In this document: positions 3,177 to 56,230 of the stretch, piece by piece
How the letters are laid out: every line of letters starts with the position of its first letter
Position numbering within the stretch: the first letter of the stretch is position 1
Assembly: GCA_035317185.1 (NCBI GenBank)
Contig: DATHHN010000048.1
Location: 27,194-91,193, forward strand
Direction: 5' to 3'
DNA: 64,000 nt
From: Edaphobacter sp.
GTDB lineage: Bacteria > Acidobacteriota > Terriglobia > Terriglobales > Acidobacteriaceae
Made by a program: the position numbers and the translations under genes
Notes under the pieces: generated by a model
The model's input: the letters and a program-made list of their open reading frames with translations, nothing else
The model's database searches: none
Told to the model about the DNA's origin: nothing

Positions 3177-4484
3177 ATGAAGAAGGTAGTCGTTGCGTCT
3201 CTCCTGGCGGTCGCTAGCGTTGCACCCGTTGCACGGATGGCGGTTGCACAGACACAGGTGAATCTGGGGTCCAACGCGCAGGCAAATGGCGGAATCCAGA
3301 TGTCTCCGGCAGAATATAAGGCCTATAACGATGCGATTGCGCAGACCACGCCTCAAACCAAGGCGCCTGCGCTTGAGGCTTACCTGACTGCGTATCCGCA
3401 GTCGGCGGTGAAGGCGGCCACGCTGGAACAGCTGATGCTGGCTTACAGCAGTTTTGATCCGGCAAAGACGCTGGACGCGGCTGACCGTCTGCTGCAAGTT
3501 GACCCAAACAATCTTCGGGCCCTGACTTTTGAGGTGTACTTTCGCCAGCAGGCCGGCGATCAGGCAACCGATCCGGCAGCCAAACAAGCAGCCTATGACA
3601 AGGCGGCCGAATATGCGCAGAAGGGTCTGACTGTCACCAAGCCGCAGGAGATGAGTGATGCCGATTTCAATGCATTGAAGACCGCTGCTACACCGGTCTT
3701 CTATCGCGCAATTGCAGCGGCTGCGTTGGGCAAGAAGGACGCTCCGACAGCAATCGACGCCCTCAAAAAGAGTTTGGCTAGTGTGCCTGTGGCAGACACT
3801 ACCAAGCCCGGACCACTCCTCCAGGACACCTACACACTTGGTTCGGCGTACTACCAGTCGACGCCGCCTGACCTGATTAACTGTGCATGGTATGCTGCGC
3901 GTGCTGCTGCCTTCGCACCAGAGCCCTACAAGTCGCAGATGCTTCCGTTGGCGAAGTACTGCTTCAAGAAGTACCACGGTGCGGATGACGGTTTCGACGC
4001 GCTTCTGGCCGCAGCACAGCAGAACTTGGATCGTCCAGCCGATTTCACGATCAAGCCCGCACCTCAGCCGTCCGATATCGTGGCACAGGTGATTGCGAGC
4101 ACGCCGGATCTGGCGACGCTGGCGATCAGCGACAAGGAATTCATCCTCGCGAACGGCAAGCCTGAGGATGCCGCCAAGGTCTGGGACACGATTAAAGGCA
4201 AGACTGTGCAGTTTCCGGGCGCAACAGTCATCTCCGTCTCGGATACCGAGCTGAAGGTTGCTGTTTCGGACGATGCGGTTCAGTCGAAGACGGCCGACTT
4301 TACGTTCCAGCTGAAGGAGCCGTTGAAGACGCCTCCTGCGGTTGGCGACAAGGTTGACGTGACCGGAACCTATGCATCATTCACACCAAGCCCAATCATG
4401 ATCACGATGAGCGACGGCGCGATTATCGAGAAGAAGGCTCCTGCGAAGAAGCCGACGCCGGCACGTCGTCCAGCCCATCGGTAA
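3177..4484 (+). CDS. Secreted helical-repeat (TPR-like) protein of unknown function
   Basis: 435 aa, signal peptide (MKKVVVASLLAVASVAPVARMAVAQ), Ala-rich amphipathic helices, beta-rich C-terminus, SD GAGGAG upstream, terminator downstream. Confidence 0.8.
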   Translation: MKKVVVASLLAVASVAPVARMAVAQTQVNLGSNAQANGGIQMSPAEYKAYNDAIAQTTPQTKAPALEAYLTAYPQSAVKAATLEQLMLAYSSFDPAKTLDAADRLLQVDPNNLRALTFEVYFRQQAGDQATDPAAKQAAYDKAAEYAQKGLTVTKPQEMSDADFNALKTAATPVFYRAIAAAALGKKDAPTAIDALKKSLASVPVADTTKPGPLLQDTYTLGSAYYQSTPPDLINCAWYAARAAAFAPEPYKSQMLPLAKYCFKKYHGADDGFDALLAAAQQNLDRPADFTIKPAPQPSDIVAQVIASTPDLATLAISDKEFILANGKPEDAAKVWDTIKGKTVQFPGATVISVSDTELKVAVSDDAVQSKTADFTFQLKEPLKTPPAVGDKVDVTGTYASFTPSPIMITMSDGAIIEKKAPAKKPTPARRPAHR

Positions 4485-4502
4485 ACGGTGGTTGATAGTA
4501 AG

Positions 4503-4527
4503 AAAGGCAGCCTTCGGGCTGCCTTTT
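4503..4527 (+). terminator. Rho-independent terminator
   Basis: AAAGGCAGCC-TTCG-GGCTGCCTTTT. Confidence 0.9.
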
Positions 4528-4812
4528 CTGCGTTTCGCTGAAATTAAATCGATTTCTAGCTCTAGGTTTCAAAGAACCGGTGGCAAAAATATGTGTAGTT
4601 GAAGAAATGTGCAAAAAATTGCACTTTGAAGGCGCACAACGGCCTTTTTCGAGTTAACTTTGGAATGGAGCCTCCAAGATTCGCATTGGAGATGCTTATA
4701 CGGGCGATACGTGCGGTCTGAAGATTCGACCCTGATCGTTGCCTTCCTTGTCCTCTCTGACTTACTTGCATATCCCTGGCTACACCTCAGCAGAGCAGCA
4801 GGAGGAGTATCA

Positions 4813-4854
4813 ATGTTTTATTTGGAGCGGAGCAGGGAGGGGATTTGCTCGTGA
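4813..4854 (+). CDS. Possible 13-aa upstream peptide (MFYLERSREGICS) overlapping the EAL gene start
   Basis: SD GGAGGAG at 4801-4807, ATG 4813, TGA 4852-4854 overlapping GTG 4851 (GTGA). Confidence 0.3.
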   Translation: MFYLERSREGICS

Positions 4855-5645
4855 GTCGAGTGAAACGTTTCCCTGAATTTCAGATTTTTTTGCAACCGAT
4901 CGTCGACCTGAAGAGAACGTCGATTTTTGCGTATGAGGCATTGTGCAGGGGATTGGGGGGAGAAAGTTACCCGGAGCTGTTGGAGCAGGTCGATCCAAAT
5001 CTGATTTCCAGGTTCGATGAACTGATCATGGTCAGAGAGCTTCAACTGGCCGCTTCGCTTCGGTTGGAAAGCATGGGAGCTAAGATCTCTCTGAACATGG
5101 GACCGACGACAGGGCTTGATCGAGCGTACGTGTTGCGCGAAGCAAGGCGATTGGGAATCAAGCCCTCTTCCATAATGATTGAACTTACGGAGGGGGTGAG
5201 AATGGAACCGGCGAAGCTGGCCCGCATCATCGCGGACCACCGCGCGGCTGGGGTTGTGGTGGCACTCGATGATTTTGGCGGAGGATATGCCGGACTGAAT
5301 GTGCTGGCGACGTGTGTGCCGGATGTTTTGAAGATCGACGCTGAACTAATTCGAAATATACATTCGAGTCCACTAAAGAAAACGATTGTGAGTGCGTTCG
5401 CCGATGTGTGCCGGAGATTGAGTGTCGAGATTGTCGCCGAAGGTGTGGAGACAATCGCAGAGGTTGATGTGCTGTACTGCATGGGGATCAATCTGATGCA
5501 GGGATACTTCTTTGCCCATCCGCGGGTAGGGCAGATGCCGGAGGTAAACTTTCCGCGGAAATATCAAAACACCACACTGGCGGAAAAGTGGCCACGAATC
5601 TCCAAAGCAGATCGGGAGTGGTTGCGGCGGGCGATTCGGCAGTAG
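4851..5645 (+). CDS. Stand-alone EAL-domain c-di-GMP phosphodiesterase
   Basis: FLQPIV, YEAL, IELTE, ALDDFGGGYAGL, LKID, VAEGVET, QGYFFAHP motifs. Start GTG 4851 or TTG 4845. Confidence 0.92.
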   Translation: MSRVKRFPEFQIFLQPIVDLKRTSIFAYEALCRGLGGESYPELLEQVDPNLISRFDELIMVRELQLAASLRLESMGAKISLNMGPTTGLDRAYVLREARRLGIKPSSIMIELTEGVRMEPAKLARIIADHRAAGVVVALDDFGGGYAGLNVLATCVPDVLKIDAELIRNIHSSPLKKTIVSAFADVCRRLSVEIVAEGVETIAEVDVLYCMGINLMQGYFFAHPRVGQMPEVNFPRKYQNTTLAEKWPRISKADREWLRRAIRQ

Positions 5646-5653
5646 CGATGAGG

Positions 5654-6448
5654 CTATTCGCCGAGCATGATGCGTTTGATGTGATGGGCGCGGCCAGTGG
5701 CTCCGTCGCAGGAGATGAGGGCAGCGCACATCTTTGGATTGCCTTTGGCGGGCTCGAACTTGCCGGGCATTCCTGTGAGAAAACGTGCCAGAACGAGCTC
5801 TTTTTCGACGCCAATTACGGAGTCGTAGGGACCGGACATGCCTACGTCGGTCTGGTAGGCGGTGCCGTTGGGAAGGATGCGCTCGTCGGCAGTGGGAATG
5901 TGGGTGTGGGTGCCGAGTAGAGCAGTGACGCGGCCGTCAAGGTACCATCCCATGGCCACTTTTTCGCTGGTGGCTTCGCCGTGGAGGTCGAGGAGGATGA
6001 CCTTTGGGGTGATTTTGCTGAGGAGTTCGTCTGCTTTACGGAAGGGGTCGTCGCAGGAGGACATGAAGACGCGGCATTGGAGGTTCATGACGGCGTAGGT
6101 TTGACCGGTGGGTAGCTCGCCTTCATAAACGCCGAACCCTGGTGTGCCAACGGCGTAGTTGGCCGGGCGAATGACGCGCCGGCCACGAACGTGGGAGTCG
6201 GCGGGGACGGTCATGTACTCGAAGATCTCTTTTTTGTCCCAGATGTGGTTGCCAGTGGTGATGACGTGGGCTCCGAGATCGAAAAGTTCTTCTGCGATGG
6301 ACGGGGTGATGCCGAAGCCGCCGGCGGCGTTTTCGCCGTTGATGACAAGGAGATCGACGGCATTGGAATCGAGGACGTGGGGCAGGTGTTCGCGGACGAT
6401 GTGGCGGCCGGCGGAGCCAAAGACGTCGCCGACGAAGAGGATATTCAC
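5654..6448 (-). CDS. ymdB: YmdB/TIGR00282-family metallophosphoesterase
   Basis: ILFVGDVFG, NGENAAGGFG, TTGNHIWD, RPANY, DLHGEATSEK, GTHTHIPTAD, TDVGMSGP. Confidence 0.95.
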   Translation of the reverse strand: MNILFVGDVFGSAGRHIVREHLPHVLDSNAVDLLVINGENAAGGFGITPSIAEELFDLGAHVITTGNHIWDKKEIFEYMTVPADSHVRGRRVIRPANYAVGTPGFGVYEGELPTGQTYAVMNLQCRVFMSSCDDPFRKADELLSKITPKVILLDLHGEATSEKVAMGWYLDGRVTALLGTHTHIPTADERILPNGTAYQTDVGMSGPYDSVIGVEKELVLARFLTGMPGKFEPAKGNPKMCAALISCDGATGRAHHIKRIMLGE

Positions 6449-52477: not shown

Positions 52478-53113
52478 ATGCGCAGCCTCTTTGGCGGTAG
52501 TGATAGTACAAGCACACGTGGGGCCGATGCCACTCGCGTCCCACGCCACTCAAGCGGATGGAAGGATTTGCTCAAGTACCTGCGAACGCAGGAGTCGCTG
52601 CGCATTCTCGATATCGGCCCAACCTCATCGACGAATATCAACTACATCACCAGCCTCGGCCATAGCATCTATATGGCGAACCTGGTGGAAGAGGCCGCCA
52701 AGCCAGAGTGGGTTATTCCAGCCGAAGCCGGCGAACAATCCACGTACGACATTGATGGCTTTCTCGCCAACAATCTCAACTTCTCCGGACGCCACTTTGA
52801 TGTAGTTATTTTGTGGGACACAGCGGATTATCTGCCGGAGCCGTTACTGGCACCCGTTTTTTCACGCATCCATGAAGTAATGGAACCGGGCGGACTTATG
52901 CTTGCCTTCTTCCATGCCACGATTGATCCTGCCCTGCACTTTAGCCGTTACCATCTCACCGATACTGAATTTGTTGAGATGCAGAAGGCAGGGAACTATC
53001 CGTTGCTTCATATCTATAGCAATCGAAAGATCGAAAATATGCTGAATCAGTTCAGCAACTATCGGTTCTTTTTGGCAAAAGATAATCTGCGGGAAGTAAT
53101 TGTCACACGATAA
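52478..53113 (+). CDS. Class I SAM-dependent methyltransferase-like protein
   Basis: ILDIGPTS (variant motif I), HFDVVILWD..DYL, MEPGG. Confidence 0.7.
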   Translation: MRSLFGGSDSTSTRGADATRVPRHSSGWKDLLKYLRTQESLRILDIGPTSSTNINYITSLGHSIYMANLVEEAAKPEWVIPAEAGEQSTYDIDGFLANNLNFSGRHFDVVILWDTADYLPEPLLAPVFSRIHEVMEPGGLMLAFFHATIDPALHFSRYHLTDTEFVEMQKAGNYPLLHIYSNRKIENMLNQFSNYRFFLAKDNLREVIVTR

Positions 53114-53147
53114 AAAATTGCATAAAGAAAGATGCTTCAGCGCAGGA

Positions 53148-53185
53148 AAAAGCGCAAGAGCGGAAACTGCAGCGCTTGCGCTTTT
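53148..53185. terminator. Bidirectional terminator
   Basis: AAAAGCGCAAG...CTTGCGCTTTT between convergent genes. Confidence 0.8.
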
Positions 53186-53204
53186 CATCTTGCGACGTTG
53201 AAGC

Positions 53205-53462
53205 CTAACCCTTGGCGTTCTGTTTTCTACGCTCAGCCCACCGCTTTTTCATAGCATCGGCAATGCGCTTACGTCCCTCTGGGCTTAGTTTGCGTTTCCG
53301 TGCTCCTGCTGGAGCGGCGGCAGCGCCACCATTCTTGCTTCCCTTGGGACGTCCACGACCTGCCCGCGCAGCCGGAGCAGCAACTCCAGCAAGCAAAGCA
53401 CGTGCCTGCTGCAGTTTTAATATTTGGGCATCAATCTCTGCGACGATACGGCTAACTTCCAC
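53205..53462 (-). CDS. 85-aa basic protein with a coiled coil and an AT-hook (candidate nucleoid-associated protein)
   Basis: GTG 53462 with SD GGAGG; MEVSRIVAEIDAQILKLQQARALLAG, GRGRPKGSKN, RKRKLSPEGRKRIADAMKKRWAERRK. Confidence 0.8.
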   Translation of the reverse strand: MEVSRIVAEIDAQILKLQQARALLAGVAAPAARAGRGRPKGSKNGGAAAAPAGARKRKLSPEGRKRIADAMKKRWAERRKQNAKG

Positions 53463-53547
53463 TTGCTGCCTCCAGTTGGCACCGGTAATTTGAGTCACTT
53501 GATTCAGCTGGGAGGCACAAATCAAATCCCCTGAATGCCACATAATT

Positions 53548-53576
53548 ACCATACAGAAGCAACTAATGACTGGCAA
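53548..53576 (-). promoter_or_regulatory. sigma70 promoter of the AT-hook gene
   Basis: TTGCCA (53576-53571), 17 nt, TATGGT (53553-53548). Confidence 0.6.
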
Positions 53577-53592
53577 ACAAGTAATAACTACT

Positions 53593-55977
53593 TTAAGACT
53601 TATTGACTACATCTGAAGTAGACTTCGTATCCTTTGTTTCTAGACCTCGTTGCGGCGCACGCACAGCATATCCCGGTCCTGCCTCATCCATCTCTTCATA
53701 GCGTGAATTTCCCAGGCCGCGGCGTGTATTAACCTCTTCAATACAATGCTTCAACCCTTTTAGTGTCTCTTGTTTATCCTGCGCAAACTCAGCAGCCATG
53801 CGGGTCAGCGCATAGGTGACGATATCGCTATGATGTAAGTCATGCATCCCCGGCGCGCGCCGCAGATTCAGCCACAACCGATGCACTAGCTGTACTTCGT
53901 TTGGTTGAATTGCCGGAGCATGAGGTCCAATGTGAAAACTCAGTGACTCACCATCCGGCTTGATGACATAAAAAGTAAATTGCCGTTTCGGCTCAGGCAA
54001 AGCCTCCCATGCCTGACCTACATGATAGGCCTGTTCTTCAGCAGTCAGCTTGCTCGACAGGCCGGAGATTACGGCAGCCGCCTCGAGTGAGTTAGCCGTC
54101 TGCACAAGGGCAGCGAATATATCGCCTGCCGGAACTACAAGCAAAGAAATATGTTTGCCAAAGCTCTCTGCCACGGAGACTGCCTTGGTAAATAGCATTT
54201 GCTCATGCTCGCTGAATAACTGCTCGGAGGCATCAACGTACTCTGGCCCACCTGCACCCATCATTCGCGCGGCAAGCACAACCAGATCCTGCTCGTCTGT
54301 ATTGGTATGAGTTAGAGCCCACTTCAACGCGAATGGTGTGGCGGAGTCTCGCATTGTTACTACTACGGCACCCGGACGAATCTCCAGCGCATCTCGACCT
54401 ACTGTGTCCTGGTGTTCCAGTTGAAAATGTTCTCTCATCTGGCGCGTAGTCAGGTCATGGCGCCTCTTGTTATCCCTCTCCGAGAGCGTAAACACAATAA
54501 AGAAGGCTGCCGCAAAGATGACGCCACTTACTGTAGCTACCGATTTAGTAAATAAATTCACAATCGCGGTAGACAGTAACACCAGAAATACTGAGATAAG
54601 TCCCAGTGGTATCTCAGTTTTACCAATGCGAAGGTTAAGCGGCACTTTCGACCCCCGCTCTCCGCGAAACTTCCAGCGCAACACCAGCATAGCCAGCGCA
54701 TTGAAAGTAAAACTCCAGATAACACCGAACGCATACGCCTCGCCGATAATTAAAACATTGCCGTGGGTCAGCACAATAACAAACAGCTGGATTCCCGCAA
54801 CAAGATTGATGATCCTGTAACTCGTTCCGTACTTTCGCTGTGGCTTGCGGAACCAATCCGTAAGTACGCCATCCTCTGCGACGCGCATCAACACGCCTGT
54901 TGAGCCGACGATAGCGGTATTGACTGCACCCCCAAGGATCAGAAATCCAACCAGCACCACAAAGCCACGGAAGAATATCCGTAATATCTCCGGCCCCACC
55001 ATGTACATCGCCATACCCGCGATCAGGTTGTCGCGGTAGACATGGACTCGAACAGCGTCGGGAATAATCATGACCGCAAGCATGGAGCACAGGCCCGTAA
55101 ACATAAAGCTGTACACCGCGATAACCAGGGCTGCACGCTTCAGGTTTTTCAGCTTCGGATGTTCAATCTCGCGGTTCACCTGTGCGAGTGACTCCTCGCC
55201 GCTCATGGCAAGCACCGAGTGGCCAAAGGCCATCACCACGCCAAGCAGTCCCAGCGAAGACGCAAATTTCGTGCCCTTCAGAAAGCCCAAAGCATCCGGA
55301 CTGAAATGAAGATTGGAAGGAATAGGCAGAGGAGGCAGTGCCGCTCCACGGTGAACTACGGTAAAAATTCCCCAGGCCAGCAAGATCACCACCATTACGG
55401 TAGTGATCTTCATAATATCGAGAGCTTTTTCGCTCGACTCTTCAATCCCTTTGATGTTCTGCCACCAGAAGTAGATCGTAATAACGATAGCGATGCCGGC
55501 CGAAGAGAAATCGGGCCTGAGATGCGGTACGACAGCCCAGTGAAATCGAGCAGCGAAAAACGCCGCCAGGTCGTTCAACATACCGACGATGTACTGACCG
55601 GCGGAGACGCCTGATATTGGTCCCGTCAGCACATAATCGAACATCAGCGCCGAAACGCTTACTTTGGCAAATGTCCCCCCCAACGCCTCTTTGACGATAC
55701 GGTAGACGCCACCTCTGGTGAACATCGAGCAGCTCTCGACATACACCGCACGCACGGCATAGGCAAAGACCATCACGCCCAGAATGAACCACGGCGCTGC
55801 TTTGCCCACGGCCTCTTCAGCAAGGCCACCTGCATAGAAAGCGGAAGATCCAAGATCGTTGAGAACGATGGCGGCCGCACGCCAGAAAGAGATGAAGGTA
55901 AGCATGACCGAAGACGCCACAACAAGGCGTACACGGTTCGATTGCGGCAGAACGATAGTCTGTTTAGTTGCAGCCAT
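53593..55977 (-). CDS. KimA-like APC-superfamily transporter with a C-terminal cytoplasmic domain (probable K+/H+ symporter)
   Basis: NDLGSSAFY (Asp and Tyr 7 residues apart as in KimA), GGVY, LMFDYVLT, SGEESL; 12 TM-like segments plus a soluble C-terminus. Confidence 0.8.
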   Translation of the reverse strand: MAATKQTIVLPQSNRVRLVVASSVMLTFISFWRAAAIVLNDLGSSAFYAGGLAEEAVGKAAPWFILGVMVFAYAVRAVYVESCSMFTRGGVYRIVKEALGGTFAKVSVSALMFDYVLTGPISGVSAGQYIVGMLNDLAAFFAARFHWAVVPHLRPDFSSAGIAIVITIYFWWQNIKGIEESSEKALDIMKITTVMVVILLAWGIFTVVHRGAALPPLPIPSNLHFSPDALGFLKGTKFASSLGLLGVVMAFGHSVLAMSGEESLAQVNREIEHPKLKNLKRAALVIAVYSFMFTGLCSMLAVMIIPDAVRVHVYRDNLIAGMAMYMVGPEILRIFFRGFVVLVGFLILGGAVNTAIVGSTGVLMRVAEDGVLTDWFRKPQRKYGTSYRIINLVAGIQLFVIVLTHGNVLIIGEAYAFGVIWSFTFNALAMLVLRWKFRGERGSKVPLNLRIGKTEIPLGLISVFLVLLSTAIVNLFTKSVATVSGVIFAAAFFIVFTLSERDNKRRHDLTTRQMREHFQLEHQDTVGRDALEIRPGAVVVTMRDSATPFALKWALTHTNTDEQDLVVLAARMMGAGGPEYVDASEQLFSEHEQMLFTKAVSVAESFGKHISLLVVPAGDIFAALVQTANSLEAAAVISGLSSKLTAEEQAYHVGQAWEALPEPKRQFTFYVIKPDGESLSFHIGPHAPAIQPNEVQLVHRLWLNLRRAPGMHDLHHSDIVTYALTRMAAEFAQDKQETLKGLKHCIEEVNTRRGLGNSRYEEMDEAGPGYAVRAPQRGLETKDTKSTSDVVNKS

Positions 55978-56077: not shown

Positions 56078-56230
56078 TTACAAGTCTGGGCTATCTGTAT
56101 CTTCATCCGTTGTGAATACCTCTTGCAGATCACGAACTATCGTAGAGATCACAACGAAAAGCGAACCGACCATACCCGTAAAAAACAACGGCACAAGTAC
56201 TGCGGAAAGAATGTGGGTAAGCGTTTCCAT
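56078..56230 (-). CDS. 50-aa membrane micro-protein (below the ORF-track cutoff)
   Basis: Manual translation METLTHILSAVLVPLFFTGMVGSLFVVISTIVRDLQEVFTTDEDTDSPDL; long hydrophobic stretch and acidic tail; TACAAT 11 nt upstream. Confidence 0.65.
   Translation of the reverse strand: METLTHILSAVLVPLFFTGMVGSLFVVISTIVRDLQEVFTTDEDTDSPDL

Follow-up and report, generated by a model that had tools for sequence, protein, structure and literature searches.

Four known families of xenogeneic silencers share an outline in which an oligomerization helix is followed by a flexible linker and a basic nucleic acid-binding end, and none of the four has been described for Acidobacteriaceae (PMC8476142). Homologs of H-NS, MvaT, and Lsr2 are found both as a chromosomal copy and as copies on phages and conjugative elements (PMC7074111; PMC8612146). 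Here, we describe a gene for an 85-amino-acid protein that resides in a 64,000-nucleotide stretch of Edaphobacter sp. DNA (the window, by which the whole analyzed stretch is meant; contig DATHHN010000048.1, positions 27,194 to 91,193) and that recalls these silencers in its build. Judged from its sequence and from a structure model, the protein might best be read, and we hold this with modest confidence, as a coiled-coil-dimerizing, DNA-binding architectural protein of the nucleoid type that is specific to the Acidobacteriaceae/Terriglobales lineage.

The protein resembles H-NS (PF00816), MvaT, Lsr2 (PF11774), Rok, and their plasmid and phage homologs (Sfh, Pmr, and phage Lsr2) in its small, basic, three-part outline, in possessing an R-G-R minor-groove element, and in occurring as a chromosomal copy accompanied by diverged mobile copies. 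It differs from them in lacking any sequence or fold relationship to any of these families: PF00816 gives no match to the protein or to its 90 relatives, a profile search of the PDB returned no H-NS chain, and Lsr2 is not matched in Pfam, NCBIfam, or the PDB. Furthermore, the hook, a peptide of HMGA type, lies free within a disordered linker and is not a loop of a folded domain, it is dispensable in many members, and the C-terminal part of the protein is a single helix. The family would seem to be a nonhomologous one of the nucleoid-protein type, with a new combination of modules in an outline like that of H-NS, Lsr2, MvaT, and Rok, and the protein itself is probably an undescribed chromosome-organizing DNA-binding protein of soil Acidobacteria.

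An earlier note on this DNA, made from the sequence alone, had recognized an N-terminal amphipathic helix, an Ala/Gly/Pro linker containing GRGRPKG, and a basic C-terminal helix with a tryptophan, and all three features are indeed present. An AlphaFold2 model was built on an alignment of 90 sequences, the same family set (90 relatives, alignment A1) from which the conservation figures given below are taken. In this model, residues 2 to 25 form a helix with a predicted local distance difference test score (pLDDT) of 90–97, residues 26–60 have no secondary structure (pLDDT 60–77), and residues 61–84 form a second helix (pLDDT ∼95). The predicted template modeling score (pTM) is 0.32, and thus the two helices are taken not to pack together; the 35 residues between them constitute the disordered Ala/Gly/Pro linker. 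The first helix follows the pattern I-D-x-E-I-x-x-L-Q-x-A-R-x-L-L, in which D11, I14, L17, and L24 are each at least 90% conserved, and it bears a subthreshold likeness to the coiled coil of ProP (PF08946 in 25 of the 90 members, best E value 0.0055; PDB 1R48, E value 0.45). Some orthologs (L028, L031, and L040, for example from Granulicella sp. L46) have C-terminal KKEAAPKKEAPAKK repeats, the added KKEAAPKK tails being reminiscent of the Lys/Ala/Pro tails of bacterial proteins of histone H1 type.

The invariant core of the family is the C-terminal tryptophan-bearing helix, and not the AT-hook. This helix conforms to the pattern S-x-E-G-R-x-R-I-A-x-A-x-K-x-R-W-A, with R74 invariant and R64, I67, A70, W75, and A76 conserved in at least 90% of sequences. 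It is also readily separated from the rest of the protein. In some members it is duplicated in tandem, in certain phage proteins (L119 and L121–L123) it lies at the N terminus with the coiled coil after it, which reverses the usual order, and in two further phage proteins of 587 and 637 amino acids, assigned ParB_N and HTH_ParB (a helix-turn-helix domain) by Pfam, it occupies the extreme C terminus. Because the helix is attached to oligomerizing domains and to ParB, it is predicted to contact DNA, and its portability argues that it behaves as a DNA-binding peptide module.

One portion of this helix, S-x-E-x-[KR]-x-[KR]-I-[SA], is reminiscent of NUMOD3 (PF07460), a conceivable relative, and all scores from the comparison were below threshold. 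The PF07460 model was placed exactly on the C-terminal helix in three of 10 members with tandem motifs, at 11.5–14.5 bits versus a cut-off of 20.4 (E values 0.035–0.3). When a profile of the helix was compared by hhalign with the I-TevI helix HKHSDITKSKISEKMKGKK (PDB 1I3J), the two aligned in the expected register with a P value of 0.014 and a probability of 3%, and I-TevI was not retrieved when the same profile was used to search the PDB. The shared string, S-x3-[KR]-x-[KR]-I-[SA]-x-x-M-K, belongs to helices that are portable and tandemly repeated in both cases, whereas the helix described here is longer, ends in an invariant R-W-A that NUMOD3 lacks, and has no nuclease context. NUMOD3 is the minor-groove-binding helix of I-TevI, I-HmuI, and I-BmoI (PMC3664794). 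A relation between the two is offered as a hypothesis, not as a classification.

The AT-hook of the linker is of the full extended HMGA type, and not just hook-like, given its nine-residue identity to an HMGA1 peptide; the core noticed in the earlier note is thus confirmed and extended. The top PDB sequence match of the whole protein found by phmmer, and the only one, is the HMGA1 AT-hook 2 peptide 2EZD (E value 0.06, a 25-residue chain), in which RGRPKGSKN matches HMGA1 DBD2 PRGRPKGSKNKGAA with nine consecutive identities and is followed, as in our protein, by a G/A-rich sequence. Hooks of the RGRP type bind the AATT minor groove (PMC8476142). The hook, at residues 33–44, has an R-G-R-P core flanked by basic residues, of which G37, R38, and P39 each reach at least 90% conservation in the set of 90 relatives. 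The Pfam AT-hook model PF02178, whose 13 positions give it low power, makes no report for the 85-amino-acid protein at an E value of 10 or below, and it finds five of the 90 relatives at E < 0.1; in one member (P0136) it scores 12.7 bits versus a cut-off of 17.4.

Even so, the hook is not the defining element of the family. Among the 120 closest clusters, the GRP core is universal (120 of 120) and the exact string RGRPKGSKN is present in 93. Across 81 chromosomal loci, a GRP core is found in 62 (32 of RGRP type and 30 of PGRPRK/PGRPKK type) and is missing from 19, and only nine of 24 full-length phage copies have it. Terracidiphilus-like orthologs have no GRP, yet they keep the same arrangement of permease, family gene, methyltransferase, and bactofilin. 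Since these same-slot orthologs lack the hook, it is an accessory that was gained or lost within the orthologous lineage.

Other described proteins share single features with this family. HMGA1 (HMG-I/Y), whose AT-hook 2 (2EZD/2EZE) has the identical RGRPKGSKN, a G/A-rich sequence after it, and an intrinsically disordered setting, differs in having three hooks and an acidic tail and in being without a coiled coil, whereas the 85-amino-acid protein combines a single hook with a coiled-coil helix and a basic tryptophan helix. This likeness almost certainly reflects a convergent motif rather than protein homology. The C-terminal coiled coil of ProP (PF08946, 1R48) is an antiparallel homodimer that the N-terminal helix resembles in its motif I-D-x-E-I-x-x-L-Q-x-x-R-x-x-L, at subthreshold scores only. 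GapR (PF10073), a protein of ∼90 amino acids that is all helical and prefers AT-rich DNA, is similar in size and in its helical makeup, and was matched in one relative only, below threshold (E value 0.089, 12.8 bits versus a cut-off of 22.6). There is no evidence for common descent with either ProP or GapR. Finally, CarD of Myxococcus xanthus is a bacterial protein in which RGRP AT-hooks for DNA binding are joined to a protein-interaction domain (PMC4374960). It shares with our protein the presence of a eukaryote-like RGRP hook in a bacterium, but it is large, with four hooks, an acidic region, and an RNA polymerase-binding CarD_CdnL_TRCF domain, none of which is present here.

The gene is real and under strong purifying selection, as judged from the number of its relatives and from ratios of nonsynonymous to synonymous substitution rates (dN/dS) of 0.03–0.08 against orthologs. 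A word-indexed search recovered 2884 clusters (90% identity) at E ≤ 1e-3, of which the top 120 are 76%–93% identical to the protein and are without exception labeled "hypothetical." An exhaustive HMMER search of representatives at 50% identity gave 1458 sequences at the same threshold, nearly all of 70–140 amino acids. Selection is uneven along the protein, with a median dN of 0.039 for the C-terminal helix, 0.094 for the N-terminal helix, and 0.31 for the linker. The product, at 9.0 kDa, has a pI of 11.9 and a net charge of +16 (22 Lys and Arg versus six Asp and Glu), and no paralog of it was found within the window. The open reading frame originally listed, 53205–53576 (−), is a 123-codon frame that runs from a TTG to the stop; only its 85-codon part is the real gene. 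The GTG start is retained in 13 of 15 aligned orthologous upstream regions, and the orthologous proteins begin MEVSRI.

All names given by the sources of these relatives are acidobacterial (Tunturibacter, Ca. Sulfotelmatobacter, Acidobacteriaceae, and Terriglobales). Likewise, Acidobacteriaceae account for the top 80 loci from GTDB species genomes, with three labeled otherwise. These three (L029, L044, and L037) come from metagenome-assembled genomes labeled "uncultured Verrucomicrobiae" or "Janthinobacterium lividum" that carry a complete Acidobacteriaceae syntenic block, and their copies nest within Acidobacteriaceae clades. The bins are probably mislabeled or contaminated because they share the same block.

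Consistent with the earlier expectation that the protein belongs to no characterized family, ribosomal and RNA-binding families included, no library assigns it. Neither Pfam nor NCBIfam has a model that reaches its cut-off for the protein, and the same is true of Pfam for the 90 relatives. PHROGs v4 and PADLOC 2.0 hold no family at E ≤ 0.01 for the protein or for six or seven paralogs from mobile elements, and PDB sequence and profile searches, using both the whole family and the C-terminal helix alone (alignment A2), returned no related chain. Certain apparent matches were rejected: PF13801 (Metal_resist; E value 5e-4, below cut-off) and DctP in the PDB reflect a chance string, L-[ST]-P-E-x-R-K, and CagY and TFIIH merely share LTPEARK or KISPEGK repeats. 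In the full-text literature, no description of the family was found, nor was an AT-hook or nucleoid-associated protein or a xenogeneic silencer found described for Acidobacteria.

The family as a whole comprises a chromosomal core copy and diverged paralogs on conjugative elements, prophages, and phages. The diverged members were retrieved by using a 48%-identical representative as the query, and the settings of several of them are included in Table 1. A scan of IMG/VR revealed 44 viral contigs with relatives, of which ∼24–30 encode the complete arrangement of N-terminal helix, linker, and C-terminal helix. At least three phage contexts can be distinguished, with the gene adjoining a DUF2924-serine recombinase and ParB-methylase/terminase genes, lying between an intein-bearing terminase-like gene and a portal/MuF gene, or following tail genes. 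One phage contig (L102) has, in the terminase position, an 806-amino-acid open reading frame (3558–5978, +) with a Hint/intein insertion (PF13403 and PF14890) and a C-terminal VHNC. In other cases (L092/L093, L113, L125, and L130), the family gene of an integrated element is transcribed divergently from a (DUF2924-)large serine recombinase gene at the element's edge; such recombinase-adjacent copies might conceivably act as architectural factors when the element integrates or excises. Searches by tblastn of the PLSDB plasmids and INPHARED phages gave no match, and so no plasmid or phage of a cultured host in these collections appears to carry the family.

A maximum-likelihood tree, whose resolution is limited by its 86 columns, places the syntenic chromosomal copies in one coherent group and most mobile copies apart from it on long branches; clustering of these labels was as strong in none of 500 shuffles. 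Mobile loci with paralogs have a GC content of 51%–57% versus a chromosomal median of 59%, and the window itself is at 58.4% GC, or 41.6% AT.

The architectural reading that we favor can be put as a working mechanism. The 24-residue N-terminal amphipathic helix would hold two or more chains together as a short coiled coil, possibly an antiparallel one like that of ProP, in which case the arms would point in opposite directions and bridging would be favored. Two flexibly tethered elements of each chain would then contact DNA. The first, present in the lineage of the Edaphobacter gene, would be the extended HMGA-type AT-hook, with R-G-R inserted into a narrow AT-rich minor groove, and the second would be the basic tryptophan helix, which might serve as the universal nucleic acid-binding module of the family. 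A dimer of this kind could clamp, bend, or bridge AT-rich DNA. The chromosomal copy is a vertically inherited, monocistronic core gene, and diverged copies are found on conjugative elements and phages, as with H-NS, MvaT, and Lsr2 homologs. The gene and its signals, purifying selection, the architecture, the motif identity, the distribution, the mobile paralogs, and the ParB fusions are demonstrated by the data, whereas oligomerization, DNA binding, AT preference, and a nucleoid role are all properties that we infer.

Several observations weigh against this architectural role. Nineteen of the 81 chromosomal copies, true same-slot orthologs among them, and 15 of the 24 phage copies have no hook, and therefore AT-specific minor-groove binding is not the essential activity of the family. 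The likeness to NUMOD3 is not significant (11.5–14.5 bits versus 20.4; hhalign probability 3%), and an arginine-rich helix bearing a tryptophan would be suited to RNA binding as well. Filaments of the H-NS type require two self-association surfaces, head-head and tail-tail, whereas a single short predicted coiled coil is visible in the 85-amino-acid protein, at a pTM of 0.32. Lastly, the trace of transcription is limited to a relative: one of four soil metatranscriptomes holds a 315-nucleotide contig from a gene ∼90% identical to this one, covering its 5′ half as far as the RGRPKG codons.

A more specific proposal is that the protein is a true xenogeneic silencer, which seems to us doubtful. 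It would represent a fifth, nonhomologous family of that type and the first for Acidobacteriota, in which a short coiled coil, perhaps antiparallel, joins two flexible arms that each carry an HMGA-type hook and a NUMOD3-like minor-groove helix and that together bridge or coat AT-rich foreign DNA, and in which phage and conjugative paralogs, many of them hookless, act as "stealth" or counter-silencing versions. The earlier note had similarly suggested a functional analog of H-NS and Lsr2 with a different C-terminal module. The general outline and the pattern of mobile copies agree with that suggestion, but the hook is optional, and the C-terminal helix is the universal part. Discrimination of foreign DNA by its AT content would be feasible because mobile loci are lower in GC and because the AT content of the window falls within the range of host genomes for RGR-type silencers (Bv3F and Lsr2), which includes 41.6% (PMC8476142).

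It is decidedly unlikely, in our estimate, that the family consists of RNA-binding or ribosome-associated mini-proteins in which the C-terminal helix serves as an arginine-rich motif and the AT-hook is an accessory nucleic acid contact. There is precedent in the arginine-rich motif of lambda N, where a tryptophan stacks on the RNA loop, and the universal element here is a basic helix with an invariant R74 and with W75, not the AT-hook. The protein is also small and extremely basic, with a strong Shine-Dalgarno sequence, and the NUMOD3 result is too weak to settle what the helix binds. However, no ribosomal or RNA-binding family was matched, the helix is fused to DNA-binding proteins with ParB_N and HTH_ParB, and the paralogs adjoin genes for recombinases, relaxases, and packaging, all of which act on DNA. 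Moreover, HMGA1 uses RGRPKGSKN as its high-affinity hook for DNA.

Portability of the C-terminal helix, which is found in tandem and at the N or C terminus of proteins that are otherwise unrelated, could also be explained if the helix is a short linear motif that docks on a conserved protein of the host or element, such as RNA polymerase, ParA/ParB, a recombinase, or a replisome component, with the coiled coil and hook merely localizing or multimerizing this adaptor. Such tethering would accord with the very strict conservation of R64, I67, A70, R74, W75, and A76, and with the finding that mobile copies repeatedly adjoin a DUF2924-serine recombinase pair or ParB-methylase genes, in many cases in divergent orientation. 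We nonetheless regard a tethering adaptor as a poor prospect: no one partner gene goes with all chromosomal copies, these being accompanied by Lnt, permease, and methyltransferase genes or by GlyA, GH2, and aldehyde dehydrogenase genes depending on the genus, and a net charge of +16 with H1-like tails would be more usual in a protein that binds polyanions.

In soil, Acidobacteriaceae rank among the most abundant bacteria, and the family is large, unannotated, and common to chromosomes, conjugative elements, and phages. If the protein does bind and organize AT-rich DNA, chromosome packaging and the taming of horizontally acquired DNA in Acidobacteriota would become open to study. It would also represent a new build for such proteins, in which a portable basic helix is joined to a free eukaryote-type AT-hook. 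The R-W-A helix, 20 residues long, is a new candidate nucleic acid-binding module that could be added to domain databases, where a model of it would allow thousands of soil and phage proteins now called "hypothetical" to be better annotated.

Table 1. Features of the gene and its product, with window coordinates, and settings of diverged copies on mobile elements
Feature	Position	Strand	Description
Coding sequence	53205..53462	−	85 amino acids, GTG start, TAG stop; VEVSRIVAEIDAQILKLQQARALLAGVAAPAARAGRGRPKGSKNGGAAAAPAGARKRKLSPEGRKRIADAMKKRWAERRKQNAKG; start and stop positions the same in orthologs of 76%–93% identity
N-terminal amphipathic helix, residues 2–25	53388..53459	−	Presumed coiled-coil self-association element
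AT-hook, R33–N44	53331..53366	−	RAGRGRPKGSKN; in the disordered linker (residues 26–60)
C-terminal basic Trp helix, K56–K84	53211..53297	−	KRKLSPEGRKRIADAMKKRWAERRKQNAK; universal, separable family module
Promoter	53548..53576	−	−35 TTGCCA (53576–53571), 17-nucleotide spacer, −10 TATGGT (53553–53548)
Shine-Dalgarno sequence GGAGG	53469..53473	−	6 nucleotides before the GTG; nearly invariant in 15 orthologous upstream regions
Intrinsic terminator hairpin and U-run	53140..53190	−	Stem 53185–53148; directly after the stop codon
P0359			Flanked by a TraG/TrwB coupling protein with ArdC on one side and by a TraI relaxase with NikA on the other
P0358			Beside DUF3560, RepB primase, and SSB
P0367			In front of ParB_N-methylase, DUF5681, and large terminase
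P0307			Divergent from a large serine recombinase; Dam, a PIN/Phd pair, a TrwB-like ATPase, and Replic_Relax nearby
P0283			Adjoins an RHS protein within an island

The expression signals largely bear out what had been noticed at first, namely, a canonical promoter, a strong Shine-Dalgarno sequence, and a terminator, as expected of a monocistron. The ribosome-binding site is well placed and conserved (Table 1). The promoter hexamers are weaker than canonical, matching the consensus at nine of 12 positions, and a scan found two such sites versus 1.2 expected by chance. Nevertheless, TTTGC-N17-TTCTGTAT(C/G)GT is kept in 11 of the 15 orthologous upstream regions amid diverged flanks, and this footprint argues that the promoter is real. 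Its position implies a 5′ untranslated region of ∼80 nucleotides. Within this leader, ∼30–45 nucleotides upstream of the Shine-Dalgarno sequence, lies an element, CAAGTGACTCAA (53490–53501, −; CGAGTAACTCG in relatives), that is kept in most close orthologs despite divergence of the surrounding leader and that may be an autoregulatory operator or an RNA element.

The terminator hairpin was missed by a simple scan owing to its long loop and was found by folding. It has an 11-bp, G+C-rich stem (AAAAGCGCAAG/CUUGCGCUUUU), and the 86-nucleotide stretch folds at −31.3 kcal/mol (z = −2.0 versus shuffles). The presence of both an A-run and a U-run makes it bidirectional, and it is shared with the convergent methyltransferase gene, which ends at 53113. 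With its own conserved promoter and its own terminator, the gene is taken to be monocistronic.

Close orthologs in at least 80 Acidobacteriaceae species genomes share one conserved chromosomal slot, in which the order is Lnt, an APC-type permease (in about half), the 85-amino-acid protein, a convergent methyltransferase, bactofilin, a hypothetical gene, and an enolase-superfamily gene. Of 90 loci, 67 have one or more of these neighbors. In other genera, the family gene adjoins unrelated housekeeping genes, such as those for GlyA, a GH2 glycosidase, or aldehyde dehydrogenase. Functional coupling to the neighbors was considered and rejected because of these unrelated neighbors in other genera and the variable presence of the permease. 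It is similarly very improbable that the protein is a local, sequence-specific regulator of the APC-type permease or of the methyltransferase-bactofilin pair, or purely an autoregulator, as might be imagined from the synteny kept within many Acidobacteriaceae and from the conserved leader element, since the permease is missing from about half of the orthologous slots, other genera have the gene beside unrelated housekeeping genes, the phage and conjugative-element paralogs lack these neighbors altogether, and neither the Pfam scan nor the AlphaFold2 model reveals a helix-turn-helix or other specific DNA-reading fold.

A second chromosomal lineage (L073 and L077–L085) has no GRP, carries ...VLSPEARKRIADAQRKRWAAQ, and is located beside the GlyA, GH2, and aldehyde dehydrogenase genes. 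In the tree it forms its own clade, near some of the phage copies.

The permease gene between Lnt and the 85-amino-acid gene (53593–55977, −) encodes an AA_permease_2 protein with a C-terminal extension of ∼300 residues, and its occurrence in about half of the orthologous slots amounts to a presence/absence polymorphism within an otherwise fixed gene order. Directly upstream of this 794-amino-acid permease, on the same strand, is an open reading frame for a hydrophobic protein of 50 amino acids (56078–56230, −). It is conserved (39%–86% identity by tblastn) in seven loci that keep the permease, and its product probably serves the transporter as a small membrane partner.

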